Shown: piece after piece, positions 8 to 14,011 of the stretch
How the letters are laid out: each line of letters opens with the position of its first letter
How positions within the stretch are numbered: position 1 is the first letter of the stretch
From: a virus
Direction: 5' to 3' (one strand)
DNA: 14,492 nt
Virus genome (UHGV): UHGV-1980068
Translations under genes and position numbers: made by a program
The notes under the pieces: model-generated
What the model saw: the letters and a program-made list of their open reading frames with translations, nothing else
Database searches by the model: none
Told to the model about the DNA's origin: nothing

Positions 8-223
8 ATGTACCAGATGGAAAAAATCACAACAGGTGTGTCATACACCACGTCAGCGGTGGGAACGGGCTACTGGTTCCTGCAGTTGCTGGACAGGGTT
101 TCCCCGTCTCAGTGGGCGGCAATAGGCGTGCTGGGGAGTCTGCTGTTTGGGCTGCTGACATATCTGACGAACCTGTATTTCAAGATTAAAGAAGACCGGC
201 GTAAGGCGGCGCGGGGAGAGTAG
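8..223 (+). CDS. Pinholin (phage 21 S21-like class II holin), 71 aa
   Basis: Translation recalls phage 21 S21 from memory (GYWFLQ..[17 protein letters not shown]...[22 protein letters not shown]). Two hydrophobic segments, the first Gly/Ala/Thr-rich and SAR-like, plus a charged C-terminal tail. Met1 and Met4 (nt 8 and 17) could be a dual-start motif. Sits directly upstream of a SAR endolysin. Only 7 nt lie upstream in the window, so the true start cannot be fully confirmed. Confidence 0.8.
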
Positions 224-226
224 ACG

Positions 227-736
227 ATGAATAAACAATACGAACTGGTTGTTAAAGGGATAAATAATTACCCGGATAAGATTACTGTTACTGTAGCGCT
301 GGAAACGGGTGGGTATACGTCACTGTTGTTGCCAAATGTGGTGATTGATCTTGATCGTGTTGAAGGTGCCCCGCTGGAGTTTTACGAAGCTGAGGCGAAA
401 AAGAAGGCGAAGCAGTTTTTCATGGATATTGCTGCCGGGTTATGTGAAGGGGATGAACAGTCACAGGAAAAGTGCCTTTGTTCCGAAGATCGGTATACCA
501 TACAAATTAACAATGCATATAACACGATACTGTCAGAAAAAGATGATATCGAATCACGCATTGAAAAACTGGAGAATTGCGTCGTTGAACTGAATAAAAA
601 ACTGTCGACGCTGATGCCTTCTGAAGATGCAAAAAAACGCCGCGATGAGCAGTTCGCGGCGTTTTACGATTATTGCATTGAAGTTACTCGCAGGAATTTT
701 GTGAAGGCTTTTGAGGAGAGTAAATCTCTTCAGTAA
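227..736 (+). CDS. Hypothetical protein, 169 aa (AT-rich insert in lysis cassette; predicted coiled-coil C-terminal half)
   Basis: Long ORF starting 4 nt after the holin stop, with GGGGAGAG upstream of the ATG. Visibly more AT-rich than the flanking phage genes. No recognisable catalytic motif; Cys cluster CEGDEQSQEKCLC; K/E-rich heptad-like C-terminus. Confidence 0.6.
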   Translation: MNKQYELVVKGINNYPDKITVTVALETGGYTSLLLPNVVIDLDRVEGAPLEFYEAEAKKKAKQFFMDIAAGLCEGDEQSQEKCLCSEDRYTIQINNAYNTILSEKDDIESRIEKLENCVVELNKKLSTLMPSEDAKKRRDEQFAAFYDYCIEVTRRNFVKAFEESKSLQ

Positions 737-944
737 GCTTAATGGCGGACGCTGCAATTAATTCAGGAAGGTCCGCAAGGTCATCTGTCAGTGGGAATGA
801 TGAAAAATCGGCGGCAGTTCTGTTAAGAATTGCTTTAACTAATTCCTTTTCCTCATCCGGCAACACGTTGATTAGAGCTACGACTGCTTGCCTGAGTGCG
901 ATTAAATCAGCAAAAGTTTGTTTTGGTAGATTTGGATAATCCAT
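684..944 (-). CDS. Hypothetical small acidic protein, 87 aa (convergent partner of the 169-aa ORF)
   Basis: Minus-strand ORF. I place the start at the internal Met (MDYPNLPKQTF...) because it is preceded by AGAGGTG a few nt upstream; the tool's longer 684..1016 version lacks an RBS. Same AT-rich composition as 227..736. Its 3' end overlaps the 3' end of 227..736 by 53 nt. Confidence 0.45.
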   Translation of the reverse strand: MDYPNLPKQTFADLIALRQAVVALINVLPDEEKELVKAILNRTAADFSSFPLTDDLADLPELIAASAIKLTEEIYSPQKPSQNSCE

Positions 945-1055
945 AGTCACCTCTGTGTTTATCAGATTGACATACCCTGGCCAGTGCCCACCACTGGCGG
1001 GGTGAAGGCTTAACATATCCAGGGATTCGGAACCGATAAATCCTGATAAATATCC

Positions 1056-1592
1056 ATGAACGCAAAAATCAAATACGGCCTGTCAGCTGCTGTTCTGGCG
1101 CTGATTGCTGCAGGCGCGTCTGCTCCTCAGATACTTGACCAGTTTCTGGACGAAAAAGAGGGTAACCACACAACGGCATACCGTGATGGTGCAGGTATCT
1201 GGACCATCTGCCGTGGTGCCATCATGGTGGATGGCAAACCTGTCGTTCCGGGCATGAAGTTGTCGAAGGAAAAATGCGACCGGGTTAACGCCATTGAGCG
1301 TGATAAAGCGCTGGCGTGGGTGGAGAAAAACATCAGAGTGCCGCTGACCNNNNNNNNNNNNNNNNNNNNNATCGCGTCATTCTGTCCGTACAACATTGGT
1401 CCCGGTAAGTGTTTCCCGTCGACGTTTTACAGACGAATTAATGCTGGTGATCGCAGGGGAGCATGCGAAGCGATTCGCTGGTGGATTAAGGACGGTGGCA
1501 GAGACTGCCGTATTCGCTCAAACAACTGTTACGGTCAGGTATCCCGTCGCGACCAGGAGAGTGCGCTGGCGTGCTGGGGAATTGACAGATAA
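1056..1592 (+). CDS. SAR endolysin (T4-lysozyme-fold phage lysozyme, R21/RrrD-like), interrupted by an in-frame 21-N gap
   Basis: N-terminal weakly hydrophobic Gly/Ala-rich signal-anchor-release segment (YGLSAAVLALIAAGASAP). Catalytic E-x8-D-x5-T triad visible in EGNHTTAYRDGAGIWT. Translation closely recalls E. coli cryptic-prophage lysozyme RrrD. The N-run is 21 nt, so the reading frame is preserved across it. Confidence 0.85.
   Translation: MNAKIKYGLSAAVLALIAAGASAPQILDQFLDEKEGNHTTAYRDGAGIWTICRGAIMVDGKPVVPGMKLSKEKCDRVNAIERDKALAWVEKNIRVPLTXXXXXXXIASFCPYNIGPGKCFPSTFYRRINAGDRRGACEAIRWWIKDGGRDCRIRSNNCYGQVSRRDQESALACWGIDR
1350..1370. other. Assembly gap (21 N) inside the endolysin gene
   Basis: Run of n characters in the sequence. 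Confidence 0.99.
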
Positions 1593-1681: not shown

Positions 1682-1716
1682 AAAAACCCCGTTTGTTGGC
1701 TGCAAGCGGGGTTTTG
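1682..1716 (+). terminator. Rho-independent terminator-like hairpin (potentially bidirectional)
   Basis: aaaaACCCCG-tttgttggctgcaag-CGGGGTtttt: GC stem flanked by an A-run upstream and a T-run downstream, about 90 nt after the endolysin stop. Confidence 0.6.
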
Positions 1717-2851: not shown

Positions 2852-3703
2852 ATGGCAAAGCTGGACTGGAAAAAACTGGAGCAGGTATTCCGACGCGAAC
2901 ATGCCAGAACTGGCATAAAACTTCAGGACTGGTGTCGACAGAACAATATCTGCTATGGCACGGCTCGTCGGTACATAAAACTGCGCAAAAACTCCCCCAA
3001 AAATACAGAGGAAAGTGCGCAGAAAAATGCGCAAAAAAGTGCGCAAATTGACACTCAAAAAAGCGCACAAAAAAATGCGCATGGAGCTGATGACGAGTCC
3101 AGTAATGACGAGTCTTACGGCGATGATGGCAGTGATGAAAAATGCGCAAAAAACTGCGCAAATTCGGCAGAAACGAAACGCAACAGCAGATCGGGTAATC
3201 CTCACCCCGTTGCCCGGTTTAGCGACCGTAACACCCACGCCGTGAGACACCGTGGATATGCGAAGTATCTTGAGGCAGATAACCTCATGGATGATGCGTC
3301 CGATATGGTGCTGTTCGATGAACTGGTGTTCACCCGTGCCCGCGCACTTTCAGTAACAGGAACACTGAAAAAAATGTTCGCCGACCTGAAAGAGGCGGCT
3401 GACGTGGAAACCCGTGTTGCCCTGTACGACAAAATACTTAAAGCCGAACAGGCTCTTGACCGGAATATTGCCCGTATCGAGTCAATTGAACGCTCATTGC
3501 TGACGCTGGACGTTCTGGCGGAAACAGCACCAAAACTTCGTGCTGACCGGGAAAGAATCAACGCCGCCAGAGATAAACTCAGAGCGGAAACCGATATTCT
3601 GACCAGCCAGCGCCGGGGGGTTATTACGCCAGTCAGTGACATCGTGTCATCGCTGCATGAAATGAGTAATTCGGGGAGACTGGATGACATTCCGGAAGAA
3701 TGA
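2852..3703 (+). CDS. Putative terminase small subunit (TerS), 283 aa
   Basis: Sits immediately upstream of the large terminase and overlaps its start by 20 nt. N-terminal basic, HTH-like region (GIKLQDWCRQNNICYGTARRYIKLRK). Low-complexity SAQKNAQKSAQ middle. C-terminal coiled-coil. Confidence 0.6.
   Translation: MAKLDWKKLEQVFRREHARTGIKLQDWCRQNNICYGTARRYIKLRKNSPKNTEESAQKNAQKSAQIDTQKSAQKNAHGADDESSNDESYGDDGSDEKCAKNCANSAETKRNSRSGNPHPVARFSDRNTHAVRHRGYAKYLEADNLMDDASDMVLFDELVFTRARALSVTGTLKKMFADLKEAADVETRVALYDKILKAEQALDRNIARIESIERSLLTLDVLAETAPKLRADRERINAARDKLRAETDILTSQRRGVITPVSDIVSSLHEMSNSGRLDDIPEE
3016..3160. repeat. Phased array of TGCGCA palindromes (six perfect, one GCGCA) within terS; candidate pac/TerS-binding site
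   Basis: TGCGCA at 3016, 3028, 3040, 3076, 3143, 3155 and GCGCA at 3063. Spacings of 12-13 bp within each cluster. Two near-identical approximately 30-bp copies (aaaaatgcgcaaaaaa[g/c]tgcgcaaatt) at 3022-3049 and 3137-3164. Confidence 0.6.
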
Positions 3704-5390
3704 ACCGCGATGTGATGAACCGTCAGAAATGACCGGGACCGAACAACGTCTGTTCATCATGACTAAACTGAGCAATCCCTGGTGGCGGCTCAATCATCTC
3801 TACAAAATACAGAACGAAAAAGGTGAGCTGGTCACCTTCAGAATGCGACCGGCGCAGCGCCAGTTGTTCCGGAGCATGCACAATAAAAATATTATCCTGA
3901 AAGCACGCCAGCTGGGGTTTTCCACGGCCATTGATATTTATCTTCTCGACCAGGCATTATTCATACCGCATCTCAAATGCGGGATTGTCGCTCAGGATAA
4001 ACAGGCTGCCAGTGAAATTTTCCGCACCAAAATTGCTGTACCGTTTGATCATCTTCCTGACTGGCTGAGAGCCTCATTCACCATCGTTGAACGTCGTAGC
4101 GGAGCCAGCGGTGGCTATATCCTGTTTGGTCACGGCTCGAGTATCCAGGTGGCAACCTCATTCCGTTCAGGTACGGTGCAGCGCCTGCATATCTCAGAGC
4201 ACGGCAAAATTTGCGCAAAATATCCGGCTAAGGCGAAAGAACTGCGAACCGGTACACTTAATGCCGTCTCTGATGAGTGCATTATCTTTGATGAATCCAC
4301 TGCTGAAGGTGTGGGTGGCGATTTTTACGAGATGAGTAACCGGGCACAGGAAATCACTGCATCAGGGCTGGCGCTGACGCCACAGGATTATAAATTCCAT
4401 TTTTACGCCTGGTGGCAGGATCTCAAATACAGCGCCAGAGTGCCGGAAAGCGGACTTAAGCTGTCACGGGAAAAAACAGCGTATTTTTCTGCGGTTGAAA
4501 AAGCAATGAACATCACGCTTACCGATGAGCAGAAACACTGGTACATCTGCAAGGAAACTGAACAGCGTGAGGAAATGAAGCAGGAATTTCCCTCAACGCC
4601 ACAGGAGGCGTTTCTGACGTCAGGACGACGGGTGTTCAGTGCGGAAAGCACGCTGCAGGCAGAGTCATTCTGTTCGCCACCGCTGATTGTTTATGACATT
4701 GAACCGGTTACAGGAACGAAGACCAAGGCGCAGTCTCTGCGTGACGGGAATAAAGCCGAACAGCACCGGACGCTGATGAATTATCTGCTGGTCTGGGAGC
4801 TGCCGGATCCGGATGAAGAGTATGTATGCGGAGCAGATACCGCTGAGGGGCTGGAGCACGGAGACCGCTCATCGCTGGATATCATCAGATGCAGTAATGG
4901 TGAGCAGGTGGCTCACTGGTTTGGTCATCTCGATGCGGAGCTTTTCGCTCATCTCATTGCGCAGGTCTGCCGTATGTACAACAACGCGTTTGTGGGGCCG
5001 GAGCGTAACAATCACGGACATGCCGTTATCCTGAAACTCAGGGAACTCTATCCGACGCGTTATATCTACAACGAACAGCACCTTGACCAGGCATATGACG
5101 ACGATACGCCCCGTCTTGGCTGGCTGACAACCCGCCAGAGTAAACCGGTCCTGACAGAGGGAATGAAAACGCTGCTGAATAACGGCCTGTCGGGGATCCG
5201 CTGGTCGGGCACATTATCAGAAATGAACACCTACGTTTATGACGCGAAAGGCTCCATGAATGCACAGGAAGGCTGTTTTGATGATCAGCTTATGAGCTAC
5301 ATGATTGCCCAGGAGATGCGCGCCAGAATGCCGGTGAGGGTAAAACAGAAAACGGATAAACGCAGAACCACACACTGGATGGCTCACTGA
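3684..5390 (+). CDS. Terminase large subunit (TerL), 568 aa
   Basis: GGGGAGA RBS. N-terminal ATPase-like region with Walker-A-like ILKARQLGFST and Walker-B-like hydrophobic-DE (IIFDEST). C-terminal nuclease-like region. Translationally coupled to the downstream portal (ATGA overlap). Confidence 0.8.
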   Translation: MTFRKNEPRCDEPSEMTGTEQRLFIMTKLSNPWWRLNHLYKIQNEKGELVTFRMRPAQRQLFRSMHNKNIILKARQLGFSTAIDIYLLDQALFIPHLKCGIVAQDKQAASEIFRTKIAVPFDHLPDWLRASFTIVERRSGASGGYILFGHGSSIQVATSFRSGTVQRLHISEHGKICAKYPAKAKELRTGTLNAVSDECIIFDESTAEGVGGDFYEMSNRAQEITASGLALTPQDYKFHFYAWWQDLKYSARVPESGLKLSREKTAYFSAVEKAMNITLTDEQKHWYICKETEQREEMKQEFPSTPQEAFLTSGRRVFSAESTLQAESFCSPPLIVYDIEPVTGTKTKAQSLRDGNKAEQHRTLMNYLLVWELPDPDEEYVCGADTAEGLEHGDRSSLDIIRCSNGEQVAHWFGHLDAELFAHLIAQVCRMYNNAFVGPERNNHGHAVILKLRELYPTRYIYNEQHLDQAYDDDTPRLGWLTTRQSKPVLTEGMKTLLNNGLSGIRWSGTLSEMNTYVYDAKGSMNAQEGCFDDQLMSYMIAQEMRARMPVRVKQKTDKRRTTHWMAH

Positions 5391-11442: not shown

Positions 11443-12092
11443 TGACGACGATTACTGAAATCATCGGACGAGTGAACACGCAACTGGTTGACCCGATGAT
11501 GGTGCGCTGGCCTCTGGCTGAGCTGTGTGATTATTACAATGATGCTGTGCGGGCGGTGATTCTGGCAAGGCCGGATGCAGGCGCAAGTCTGGAGACGCTG
11601 AATTGTGTTCCTGGTGCACGTCAGACTTTGCCTGATGGCGCAATACAGCTTCTTGACGTGATATGCCTCAGCGATGGCAGTGCTATAAAACCGCAATCCC
11701 GTGAGGTGCTTGATGCACAGTATCCCGACTGGCACATGCTGAGGGGGAAACCGGAATGCTTTATCAGCAGTGACCTTGCCCCGCGCGTGTTCTGGCTGTT
11801 TCCGGCACCGGAGGAGGCTGTGAGTGTTGATGCTGTGGTCAGCCGCATTCCGGAGGCGGTGTATGTTCTGACGCAGGATGATGACACGCCTGTACCGCTG
11901 GAAGAGGCTTATGTTAACCCGCTGGTTGACTGGATGTTGTTTCGTGCATTCAGCAAGGATGCAGCCGGTGGTGCAGAGTCAGGACTGGCAGCACAACATT
12001 ATCAGAGTTTTGTTGAGCAGCTCGGGATTAAACAGGGTGCAGACAGTGCATTGTCTGCCCGCAAGAAGGTGTTTAACGGAGGTGGAATGTGA
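11442..12092 (+). CDS. Hypothetical phage structural protein, 216 aa (possible tail/adaptor component)
   Basis: Translationally coupled on both sides (ATGA upstream, GTGA overlap with the fibre gene). Immediately precedes the tail fibre. Confidence 0.55.
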
Positions 12093-14011
12093 GTGTTGTT
12101 GTTTCGGGGACGCTGAAATCTCCTGATGGTGAGGCAATATCAGGCGCAAATATTACCCTGACGGCGCTGACAGTTTCACCGGATGCGCTCAGCGGCACCA
12201 GTGCGTCAGCAGTGACTCGTGACGGCGGGTATTACGGAATGACGCTGGAGCCGGGGGAGTATGCGGTTTCTGTGACGGTGAAAGGGAAGACTGCTGTCTA
12301 CGGACGTGTGCGTATTGAGGGGACTGAAAGTACGGTGACGCTCAATATGCTGTTACGCCGCAGTCTTGTTGAGGTGAGCATACCCGGAGAACTGCTGACA
12401 GATTTCCGGCAGATACAGAACAATGTGGCGGATGACCTTGCCACGATTCGTCGTCTGAACGAAGACACGGCGGTGAAAAATAATCAGGCTTCACAGTCGA
12501 AGGAAAGCGCTGCTGCCAGTGCGAAGACTGCATCAGAAAGCGCGAAGGCTGCGACCAGCAAAGCGACGGAGTCTGCACAAAAAGCCAGTGAGGCTGCAGA
12601 GGCGGCGACCCGGGCAGGTGAGTCTGAAAAGGCAGCGGCAGCTGACGCTAAAGAGGCCAGACGACATGCTGAAACCGCCAGAGTGGCTCAGGAGGCCGCC
12701 GGAGACGTTCTTAAACGTGCTGAGGCTGCTACAGTTAGTGCTGAAGAAGCCAGACGTATGGCTGAGAATGCACGAGGACCTAAAGGCGATACAGGGCCGA
12801 AAGGTGATGCTGGTCCTCGTGGTGAAACAGGTCCGGCGGGTCCGCGTGGGGAGAAAGGTGAGCAGGGAGAGCGCGGACCTCAGGGCATACCGGGCCAGAA
12901 AGGTGATACAGGAGAACGGGGACCTCAGGGAGTACAGGGGCCAGCTGGCGCAACAGGGCCATCTGGCCCACGTGGTGCGACCGGGCCACAGGGAGCAATG
13001 GGGCCGCGTGGTGAAACCGGGGCCAGAGGCGAAAAAGGAGACCCGGGGGGGCCTCAGGGACCAAAGGGGGATACTGGTCCGAGAGGTGAGCCGGGGCCGG
13101 CAGGAGCAAAGGGAGAGCGCGGTGAGACCGGACCTGCGGGGCCGAAAGGTGACACCGGCCCACGTGGAGAGGCCGGACCACCCGGACCACAGGGTCCGGC
13201 AGGGCAAACCGGCCCGAAAGGGGATAAAGGTGAACCCGGCGCAACAGGTCCGGCAGGTCCCGCAGGCCCTCGGGGAGAAACCGGCCCCGCAGGTCCTGCG
13301 GGTCCCGCAGCCAGTGTCGCCAGTGTTCCGGATGCCAGCACATCACAGAAAGGTGTTGTACAGCTGAGCAGCGATACCAACAGCGATGATGAAACAAAAG
13401 CGGCAACCCCAAAGGCTGTGAAAGCGGTAATGGCAGAAGTGCAGGCAGCAAAAACGAAGGCAGAAGAGGCAGCAACCCGGGCAGCAGTCCCCGGACCGAA
13501 GGGGGACAGGGGGGAACCTGGCGCACCTGGTGCAGTGGGTCCCGCAGGCCCACGGGGACCGGCTGGTGCAGCTGGTCCCAAAGGTGATGCAGGCCCGGCC
13601 GGACCCCGGGGTCAAAAAGGTGATACAGGACCTGCAGGTCCGCAGGGACCAGCTGGCCCGGCAGGCCCACAGGGGGTTGCCGGAAGGGACGGCAATGTTT
13701 CCACCGGGAAATATGCGGTTGGTTCTTATGTTTTTGGCGTGTCCTCTGTCTATGCTGACGGCGAAGGCTTATTTTCATCAGGGATATATGAAAACATTCA
13801 GGGTAGCTCCATTGATCTGATTTCAATACAGACAACACAAACAGGCGCATCAACACCAAATCAAATCTGGTTTTTGAAACTGGAGGAGGACATTCCGGGG
13901 GTGTGGCGGGCATTTAAACCCGCCGCATATATTGATCTGATGCCAGAAGGAATGCAAGGAGGAAAGAACTCGATGTTTAACTTTATTACTCTTTTCCAGC
14001 GGATAGCGTAA
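12089..14011 (+). CDS. Tail fibre protein with Stf-like N-terminus, two collagen-like Gly-X-Y domains and a short C-terminal tip domain, 640 aa
   Basis: GTG start preceded by GGAGGTGG. N-terminus ([26 protein letters not shown]) recalls lambda side tail fibre Stf (MAVKISGVLKDG...). Ala/Ser/Glu/Lys-rich helical region. Collagen block 1 at about 12776-13309 has 59 Gly-X-Y triplets with one extra-Gly interruption. The conserved Stf motif [29 protein letters not shown] follows. Collagen block 2 at about 13493-13693 has about 22 triplets. Confidence 0.85.

Follow-up and report, generated by a model that had tools for sequence, protein, structure and literature searches.

The 14,492-nucleotide window, which is the whole stretch of DNA that was analysed from virus genome UHGV-1980068, has a variable accessory slot at positions 224-1055. 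Its first 2.6 kb form a phage 21-type lysis cassette with the order S, slot, R, Rz/Rz1, and the slot is a moron-like hot spot between the pinholin gene S and the SAR lysozyme gene R. The slot contains ORF169, a YdfR (DUF1327) family protein gene on the plus strand, and rev86, a small acidic protein gene on the minus strand. Comparison of loci indicates that the variable cargo is only the C-terminal helical hairpin module of ORF169 together with rev86. These are inherited as one unit, which is here grafted onto ydfR. Lambdoid late regions are well known for morons, and the layout is one variant of this theme. The features of the cassette are as follows:

8-223, plus strand: S, class II (phage 21-type) holin/pinholin, 71 aa (PF04971, E 7e-33; phrog_9876)
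227-736, plus strand: ORF169, 169 aa
227-466, plus strand: ORF169 residues 1-80, DUF1327/YdfR N-domain (PF07041; AF2 model)
467-535, plus strand: ORF169 residues 81-103, variable linker, predicted disordered, the mosaic joint of the DUF1327 family
536-736, plus strand: ORF169 residues 104-169, predicted helical hairpin module (AF2 model; phrog_36381, phrog_15975)
684-944, minus strand: rev86, 86 aa, acidic, predicted three-helix bundle with a disordered tail (phrog_2572, E 4e-50)
684-736, both strands: convergent overlap of the ORF169 and rev86 3' ends, 53 nt
948-953, minus strand: rev86 ribosome-binding site GAGGTG, read from the sequence
975-1003, minus strand: GC-rich hairpin (GCCAGTG, 5-nt loop, CACTGGC) in the presumed rev86 5' leader
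1012-1053, minus strand: conserved element, putative leftward sigma-70-type promoter (19-mer ATATTTATCAGGATTTATC plus hexamers)
1056-1592, plus strand: R, SAR-type lysozyme with an N-terminal SAR-like segment (PF00959, E 4e-21)

The S gene has the dual-start motif M1/M4, and the ribosome-binding site GGGGAGAG for whichever gene comes next is located in its 3' end. The start codon of ORF169 is 4 nt after the S stop. The R allele in the window begins MNAKIKYGLS..., and in the leader alignment the conserved leader element always accompanies this allele. On the 3' side of R are two small ORFs, followed by Rz with an embedded Rz1 from position 2085. P22-like portal, capsid and tail fibre genes lie beyond the spanin genes. 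A first-pass annotation made from the sequence alone had placed a 169-aa plus-strand gene and a minus-strand gene between S and R, and the ORF calls and Pfam matches agree with it. It gave the minus-strand protein 87 aa; the actual length is 86 aa. The 53-nt convergent overlap at 684-736 is an additional feature that is absent from that annotation.

The GC content of 227-1055 is 0.429, compared with 0.546 in S, 0.535 in R and 0.528 in the whole window. The region is the lowest 829-bp stretch. An equally low value is reached by just 0.12% of all 829-bp segments, every one of which overlaps 227-1055. An artificial query of S joined to R was run against the phage collection. Nothing separates S from R in 933W and most Stx2a phages, and the two genes span 754 bp. 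A second group of phages has an insert of about 395 bp with a short ydfR alone inside, and the insert is about 830 bp in the window and in phage PhiR12_1. Region 224-1055 is extra DNA relative to phages such as 933W. The earlier description of visibly lower-GC DNA inserted between two normally contiguous genes is therefore upheld.

Comparison with phages that have adjacent S and R had been proposed for defining the insertion boundaries. The left junction is constant, with the S stop, 3-4 nt and an ATG, whether the next gene is R, ydfR or a free 67-aa helical gene. On the right, a leader of about 50 nt before R is common to all insert-bearing forms, and 933W is without it. The cassette is 99.6% identical in phages PhiR12_1, _2 and _5, and the whole cassette is found with at least 80% query coverage in 99 complete E. 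coli genomes. A 274-nt probe (737-1010), consisting of the non-overlapping part of rev86 and the leader, matches 314 of 5426 complete E. coli genomes, or about 6%. The cassette does not block lysis, since PhiR12_1 and 2H10 carry it and are viable.

Morons are recognised by a location between genes that are adjacent in related phages, a composition unlike that of their neighbours, and a promoter and a terminator of their own. The slot has the first two of these features, and its candidate promoter is the conserved element next to R. No terminator-like site was found downstream of rev86 on the minus strand, and rev86 ends inside ORF169. Since accessory DNA of deviant GC lies between adjacent genes, and rev86 has both a ribosome-binding site and a conserved promoter-like element upstream, the region behaves as a moron slot, in line with the moron insertion that the first-pass annotation suggested.

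Residues 1-80 of ORF169 align with positions 1-80 of the 93 positions of the PF07041 profile with a score of 118 bits (cutoff 25, E 2e-34). The protein also matches phrog_2091 (E 1e-84). By these profile matches ORF169 is a member of the DUF1327/YdfR family, the usual gene after S21-type holins. In all the prophage and phage loci examined, E. coli prophages and Stx phages among them, the DUF1327 gene sits on the 3' side of an S21-type holin gene; the YdfR gene of the K-12 Qin prophage is between essQ and rrrQ. Homologues of ORF169 carry the NCBI annotation "YdfR family protein", and many E. coli prophages have one. The first-pass annotation had recognised neither protein of the slot. Both are already represented in family collections, ORF169 in a known family and rev86 in PHROG 2572.

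The DUF1327 family has a conserved N-domain, alternative linker modules and swappable C-terminal modules, with protein lengths of 103-296 aa. BLAST matches to the cassette break at about 476-532, inside ORF169, and this break is the mosaic joint. The AF2 model of ORF169 is of moderate confidence (mean pLDDT 66). In this model, residues 5-74 form three beta strands and a long helix with a KKKAK motif, and residues 74-106 have a pLDDT below 50. The hairpin is made of helices 108-129 and 133-168, and the C-terminal end reads ...KKRRDEQFAAFYDYCIEVTRRNFVKAFEESKSLQ before the stop codon. No hydrophobic segment or signal sequence was evident on inspection of ORF169 or rev86, and GRAVY is negative for both. 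The product of ORF169 is proposed to be soluble.

Residues 1-72 of K-12 YdfR bind residues 1-597 of RNase E, the N-terminal catalytic half, in two-hybrid and co-purification experiments (PMC13232886). The purified protein carries DNase-resistant nucleic acid, which is RNA, and few transcripts are altered when YdfR is overproduced (PMC13232886). The N-domain of ORF169 (residues 1-80) corresponds to the RNase E-binding part of K-12 YdfR.

The minus-strand ORF, rev86, is very probably a real gene. Its residues 1-86 align over the full length of the phrog_2572 profile (1-86, E 4e-50), and a distant 93-aa form matches the same profile (E 1e-28). On the basis of these matches rev86 is a member of the catalogued family PHROG 2572. 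No Pfam, NCBIfam or PADLOC model matched rev86 above threshold. The protein is small and acidic, as had been stated, with a pI of 4.3 and a net charge of -7.5 over 86 aa. The gene also has its own ribosome-binding site as described, with the GAGG core at 950-953, 5 bases before the ATG at 944. The AF2 model is of moderate confidence (mean pLDDT 71) and has helices at residues 8-27, 30-48 and 56-74. A Foldseek search of this model against the PDB returned nothing with E below 3, although a fold match could be missed with a model of moderate confidence.

Two homologues of rev86, P0019 and P0020, are 49% and 41% identical to it in the alignment, and 58% and 42% identical over the matched stretches of an exhaustive HMMER search. 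The start codon and the ribosome-binding site are kept down to about 41% identity. All indels between rev86 and its distant homologues are in frame, in multiples of three. In comparisons with distant homologues, dN/dS is 0.30-0.36 for the rev86 frame, 0.32-0.70 for the two next-best antisense frames and above 1.4 for the third; the rev86 frame has the lowest value in most, not all, of these comparisons. Among close E. coli variants dN/dS ranges from 0.6 to above 1, on very few changes. On the opposite strand, the frame that shares its third codon positions with rev86 is open as well. In some close variants this antisense ORF lacks the ATG, and in loci L086 and L087 there is no start codon at its N-terminal end. 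The rev86 family is narrow, with 13 matches among 1.8 billion representative proteins. A species-level genome scan found the family in E. coli only, and the close relatives are confined to E. coli and near neighbours.

The GenBank label of this gene in the PhiR12 phages, DUF1823 (PF08853), was rejected; the match reaches 15.3 bits where the cutoff is 25 (E 0.023) and covers 30 residues only. Two fungal TPR/CHAT proteins gave repeated weak matches in the exhaustive HMMER search and were judged to be spurious helix-repeat similarity. A 110-aa version of the reverse ORF with a start at 1016 was also rejected, since this start falls inside the element at 1012-1053 and lacks conservation.

The hairpin module and rev86 are linked across loci. 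A search of viral contigs with the reverse protein gave 80 contigs, and in all 80 the rev86 homologue is convergent to the hairpin module and overlaps its 3' end. The reciprocal search with the hairpin module found rev86 in 77 of 80 contigs. In the 3 exceptions the first hairpin helix is fused to a different C-terminal domain, and the reverse gene is different as well. In the window the overlap takes in the final 17 codons of ORF169 and the part of rev86 that encodes its disordered tail. In individual loci its length is 47-59 nt (47 in L054 and L061, 53 in the window, L092 and L093, and 59 in L086-L089). The upstream DUF1327 N-domain ranges from 51% to 100% identity among the 80 rev86 loci, or is absent. 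A free-standing 67-aa hairpin gene (P0039) is found directly 3' of S in loci L090-L093. The gene order in L092 and L093 is S, the free 67-aa hairpin gene, the reverse gene and R, with no DUF1327 domain. In L087-L089, from a prophage with a Fels-1-like terminase region, a 73-aa hairpin protein and a 93-aa reverse protein are encoded as a convergent overlapping pair. This pair is located after the spanin gene and before the terminase gene, which is outside the S-R gap. Both partners have diverged in L087, where the reverse protein has about 49% identity and the hairpin protein 31% (pairwise E 8e-6).

Since this linkage holds across loci, also without DUF1327 and outside the S-R gap, the cargo is the hairpin module plus rev86. 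The first-pass annotation had described about 830 bp of two-gene cargo. It was right about the extra DNA, but the whole of ORF169 is not cargo, and the variable part is limited to the hairpin module and rev86. The co-inheritance, co-divergence and 3' overlap of the pair suggest that the hairpin module and the reverse protein may act on each other, either as proteins or via an RNA duplex. The linkage could simply reflect adjacency and the shared overlap. The 90-aa MDNNTISL... family is the commonest of the other reverse genes, and at these loci the forward protein is unlike the gene-free form only in its last few residues. A forward protein that is nearly unchanged argues against a general rule of cognate pairs.

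The position of the slot raises the question of a role in lysis. Both proteins might be routine lysis accessories which tune the timing or strength of the pinholin or SAR endolysin, for example with a cytoplasmic antiholin-like factor among them. The slot is between S and R, the forward gene follows the S stop by 4 nt, and DUF1327 genes come after the S21-type holin in all loci examined. According to the part of PMC13232886 that cites it, a genetic screen also tied K-12 ydfR to envelope integrity. However, 933W and most Stx2a phages lyse normally with an empty slot, and the content of the slot ranges from nothing to many unrelated genes. S encodes its own antiholin through the dual start, neither protein has an evident hydrophobic segment or signal, both have a negative GRAVY, and the hairpin and reverse pair of L087 is outside the S-R gap. 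Given these observations, it is improbable that the two proteins are routine lysis accessories.

The reverse gene is preceded by a conserved element next to R. The 19-mer ATATTTATCAGGATTTATC occupies 1053-1035 on the minus strand and lies directly next to the start codon of R. The window has a single copy, and 200 shuffles gave none, even with three mismatches allowed. The putative promoter consists of a -35 hexamer TTTATC (1040-1035), a 17-nt spacer and a -10 hexamer TATGTT (1017-1012). Locus L087 has no adjacent R, and there the 19-mer is conserved at 18/19 positions and the spacer at 8/17, and the -10 hexamer keeps T1, A2, T3 and T6. The hexamers and their spacing are thus kept while the spacer diverges. 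A promoter scan with a threshold of 9/12 reported no site for rev86; the element was missed because its hexamers match the consensus at only 7/12 positions. The element looks like a weak leftward promoter which would give rev86 a leader of about 60 nt. The first-pass annotation had offered a TTGACA at 966-971 as a lead to the minus-strand promoter. This hexamer is actually at 967-972 with no usable -10 after it, and its plus-strand orientation means that the minus-strand gene cannot be driven from it.

The hairpin at 975-1003 in the leader has a fold energy of -25.5 kcal/mol and a z-score of only -1.65, and it is not significantly more stable than shuffles. Other alleles of the slot have hairpins of different sequence at the same place in the leader. 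A search of Rfam gave only a chance sub-threshold match elsewhere.

Viral contigs were scanned for the 19-mer and 80 loci were examined. About 45 of the 80 have one of at least six unrelated families of small reverse ORFs, which start 103-128 nt downstream of the element. A further 25 loci have no reverse ORF, one has a 233-aa reverse ORF, and a few others are doubtful ORF calls. The families are rev86/93; the 90-aa MDNNTISL... protein, which is the commonest (26 of 80 loci); a family of 87-91 aa; the 104-aa orf6 of Stx2 phage 86; a family of 95-116 aa; and a family of 98 aa. All six belong to separate PHROGs and all are acidic, with a pI of 4.3-5.8. An hhalign comparison of the rev86 family with the 90-aa and 104-aa reverse proteins found no relationship. 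The five other families and the 233-aa ORF matched nothing in Pfam, NCBIfam or PADLOC, and the 233-aa ORF also matched nothing in PHROGs. This arrangement fits a shared leftward promoter serving a swap site. No description of varied reverse genes behind one conserved element was found in the literature searched, the coverage of which was incomplete. A search on the accession numbers and the PhiR12 phages likewise found nothing.

It is possible to read the whole S-R gap of phage 21-type cassettes as an unrecognised hypervariable island. One conserved leftward promoter would then serve interchangeable small acidic proteins of at least seven unrelated families, some of them matched to a particular C-terminal module of the late YdfR protein. 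The lysogen would produce these proteins, and their targets would be the module-bearing late proteins of related phages, against which they would provide exclusion, an immunity-like function or anti-defence. The layout would be parallel to that of colicin and immunity genes. This reading of the slot seems unlikely.

The element may also have a different function. Short-ydfR prophages without a reverse gene have the same leader before R. Since the leader is also found before R in these gene-free forms, the element could serve the translation of R instead. A further reading is that rev86 is not a functional protein gene. The leftward transcript would then be an antisense RNA against the ydfR and S mRNA that damps leaky holin expression, or the element would be a translation leader for R only. 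The 25 of 80 loci that have the element before R and no reverse ORF are in keeping with this, as are the narrowness of the rev86 family and the open frame on the opposite strand with coinciding third positions. Since no terminator was found after rev86, a leftward transcript would continue antisense into ORF169 and S. Against this, rev86 retains its start codon, ribosome-binding site and in-frame indels to about 41% identity, and its frame has the lowest dN/dS in most of the distant comparisons. Other families of similar size and charge are found at the same distance from the element, the element is retained in L087 without R, and the rev86 model is a compact three-helix fold. This reading, in either form, is therefore quite improbable.

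The low-GC insertion and the reverse gene with its own start signals could also be those of a defence, exclusion, toxin-antitoxin or abortive-infection module, in which the acidic protein would be an antitoxin or a DNA mimic. Functions of this kind had been suggested in the first-pass annotation. The presence of many unrelated small acidic proteins in the slot is a pattern typical of arms-race genes, and bor is a precedent for a lysogen-expressed gene beside lysis genes. On the other hand, the only PADLOC match is PDC-S11 to the coiled-coil region of ORF169, which is weak (E 0.003, 14.9 bits), and rev86 has no match. No toxin or antitoxin family was found in Pfam or NCBIfam, and Foldseek found no related fold. 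The two genes are convergent and not co-transcribed, and neither model has an enzyme-like or membrane-toxin-like fold. The charge of rev86, -7.5 over 86 aa, is much lower than that of DNA mimics such as Ocr. The searches give no signature of a toxin-antitoxin pair, a known defence system or a DNA mimic, and a module of this type is likewise improbable.

The preferred reading is that the slot holds a YdfR-hairpin gene of the late operon and a convergent rev86 as a pair, with rev86 expressed in the lysogen. As a whole, this model has about an even chance of being correct. In this model rev86 would be read leftward from a weak constitutive promoter beside the R start codon. Read from its own weak promoter, rev86 would be expressed in the lysogen at a time when the late operon is silent, as is the case for bor. 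Once the phage is induced, strong Q-dependent late transcription would run head-on into rev86 and shut it down. The same transcription would yield the hairpin-bearing YdfR protein at the same time as the proteins for lysis. The protein products or the overlapping RNAs of the two genes may then act on each other as neutraliser and target.

If lysogens do express the reverse genes, the slot would offer small prophage proteins in a compact form that is simple to clone. The rev86 gene is present in about 6% of complete E. coli genomes, and more have the other reverse families. The slot would then also be a way into the study of YdfR, which was linked to RNase E only recently in K-12. Without such expression, the finding would amount to no more than an annotated mosaic joint in a lysis cassette.

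The closest known relative of the forward gene is YdfR (b1555) of the K-12 Qin prophage. It has the same N-terminal 80-residue family and the same place as ORF169, after an S21-type holin gene and before a lysozyme gene. K-12 YdfR differs in being 103 aa long with a short helical tail and in having no reverse gene adjoining it. In ORF169 a linker and a helical hairpin of 66 aa, which overlaps rev86, are joined to the domain; the binding of RNase E is known for K-12 YdfR.

The bor gene of lambda and 933W fits the classical moron idea. Like rev86, it is a small gene on the strand opposite to the late operon and beside the lysis cassette, and it is annotated as lysogen-expressed in the 933W record. 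Bor is an outer-membrane lipoprotein encoded downstream of Rz, whereas rev86 codes for an acidic protein predicted to be soluble and helical, and the gene lies between S and R and overlaps a late gene.

Type II toxin-antitoxin systems also consist of two small adjacent genes on a mobile element, one with an acidic product. They are arranged as operons, in contrast to the convergent genes of the slot, and no toxin or antitoxin family or fold was found here. The OOP RNA of lambda is convergent with the 3' end of cII. As is predicted for ORF169 and rev86, these convergent transcripts overlap by about 50-55 nt at the coding 3' end, and an RNA duplex would form there. OOP is short and does not code for a protein, whereas the rev86 transcript would encode one.

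In pore-forming colicin operons, the immunity gene runs on the other strand and separates the colicin gene from the lysis gene. The slot resembles this layout in having an induced forward gene with a variable C-terminal module, then a small opposite-strand gene with its own promoter (putative in the slot), then a lysis gene. As in the colicin layout, different C-terminal modules go with different reverse genes. Colicins are large toxins and their immunity proteins are membrane proteins, whereas no toxin-like or membrane-like protein is encoded in the slot. The likeness between the slot and the colicin and immunity genes is therefore one of layout only.

The reverse gene of the slot between the holin gene S and the lysozyme gene R is annotated in the PhiR12 GenBank records as a 'DUF1823 containing protein' (3684-3944 in the record compared here, L001). 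The Pfam match to DUF1823 scores 15.3 bits against a threshold of 25; therefore, this identity was rejected and the label should not be propagated. The slot can also hold a second forward gene, encoding a minimal DUF1327 protein of 72-75 aa, as seen in L172 (2170-2397) and in one IMG/VR locus. Each of these minimal genes is adjoined by its own reverse gene, and the proteins share only ~34% identity with the N-domain of the window protein.

GC-rich hairpins lie 40-75 nt past the conserved 19-mer, the minus-strand element adjoining the R start codon, in the loci that carry it (L176-L255). Their position after the putative -10 is constant and their sequence differs between slot alleles, for example GCCAGTG...CACTGGC in one and GCCTG...CAGGC in another.

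Further ORFs lie outside the lysis cassette:
2852-3703, 283-aa ORF ahead of the large terminase-like gene
12089-14011, tail fibre-like protein of 640 aa

The 283-aa ORF contains a repeat rich in lysine, glutamine and alanine (AQKNAQKSAQ...), and neither it nor the following 568-aa ORF has a match in Pfam. Collagen repeats form six stretches of the tail fibre-like protein, which also carries a phage tail fibre repeat and, at its N-terminus, a CarboxypepD_reg domain.

The window has two masked runs of N, at 1350-1370 and 2455-2464. Since the second run is 10 nt long, the Rz reading frame is broken past it; therefore, the C-terminus of the listed 185-aa Rz ORF is false. A +1-frame ORF is embedded within Rz at 2305-2550. 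Its lipoprotein-like start (16 residues) fits what an Rz1 o-spanin is expected to have.

The gap between R and Rz (1593-2084) is a second variable slot. It contains the following features:
1683-1715, plus strand, strong terminator-like hairpin
1716-1931, small hydrophobic ORF of 71 aa (phrog_1115)
1946-2077, small hydrophobic ORF of 43 aa (phrog_4906)

The antirepressor gene ant occupies the corresponding R-Rz gap in 933W and Stx2 phage 86.
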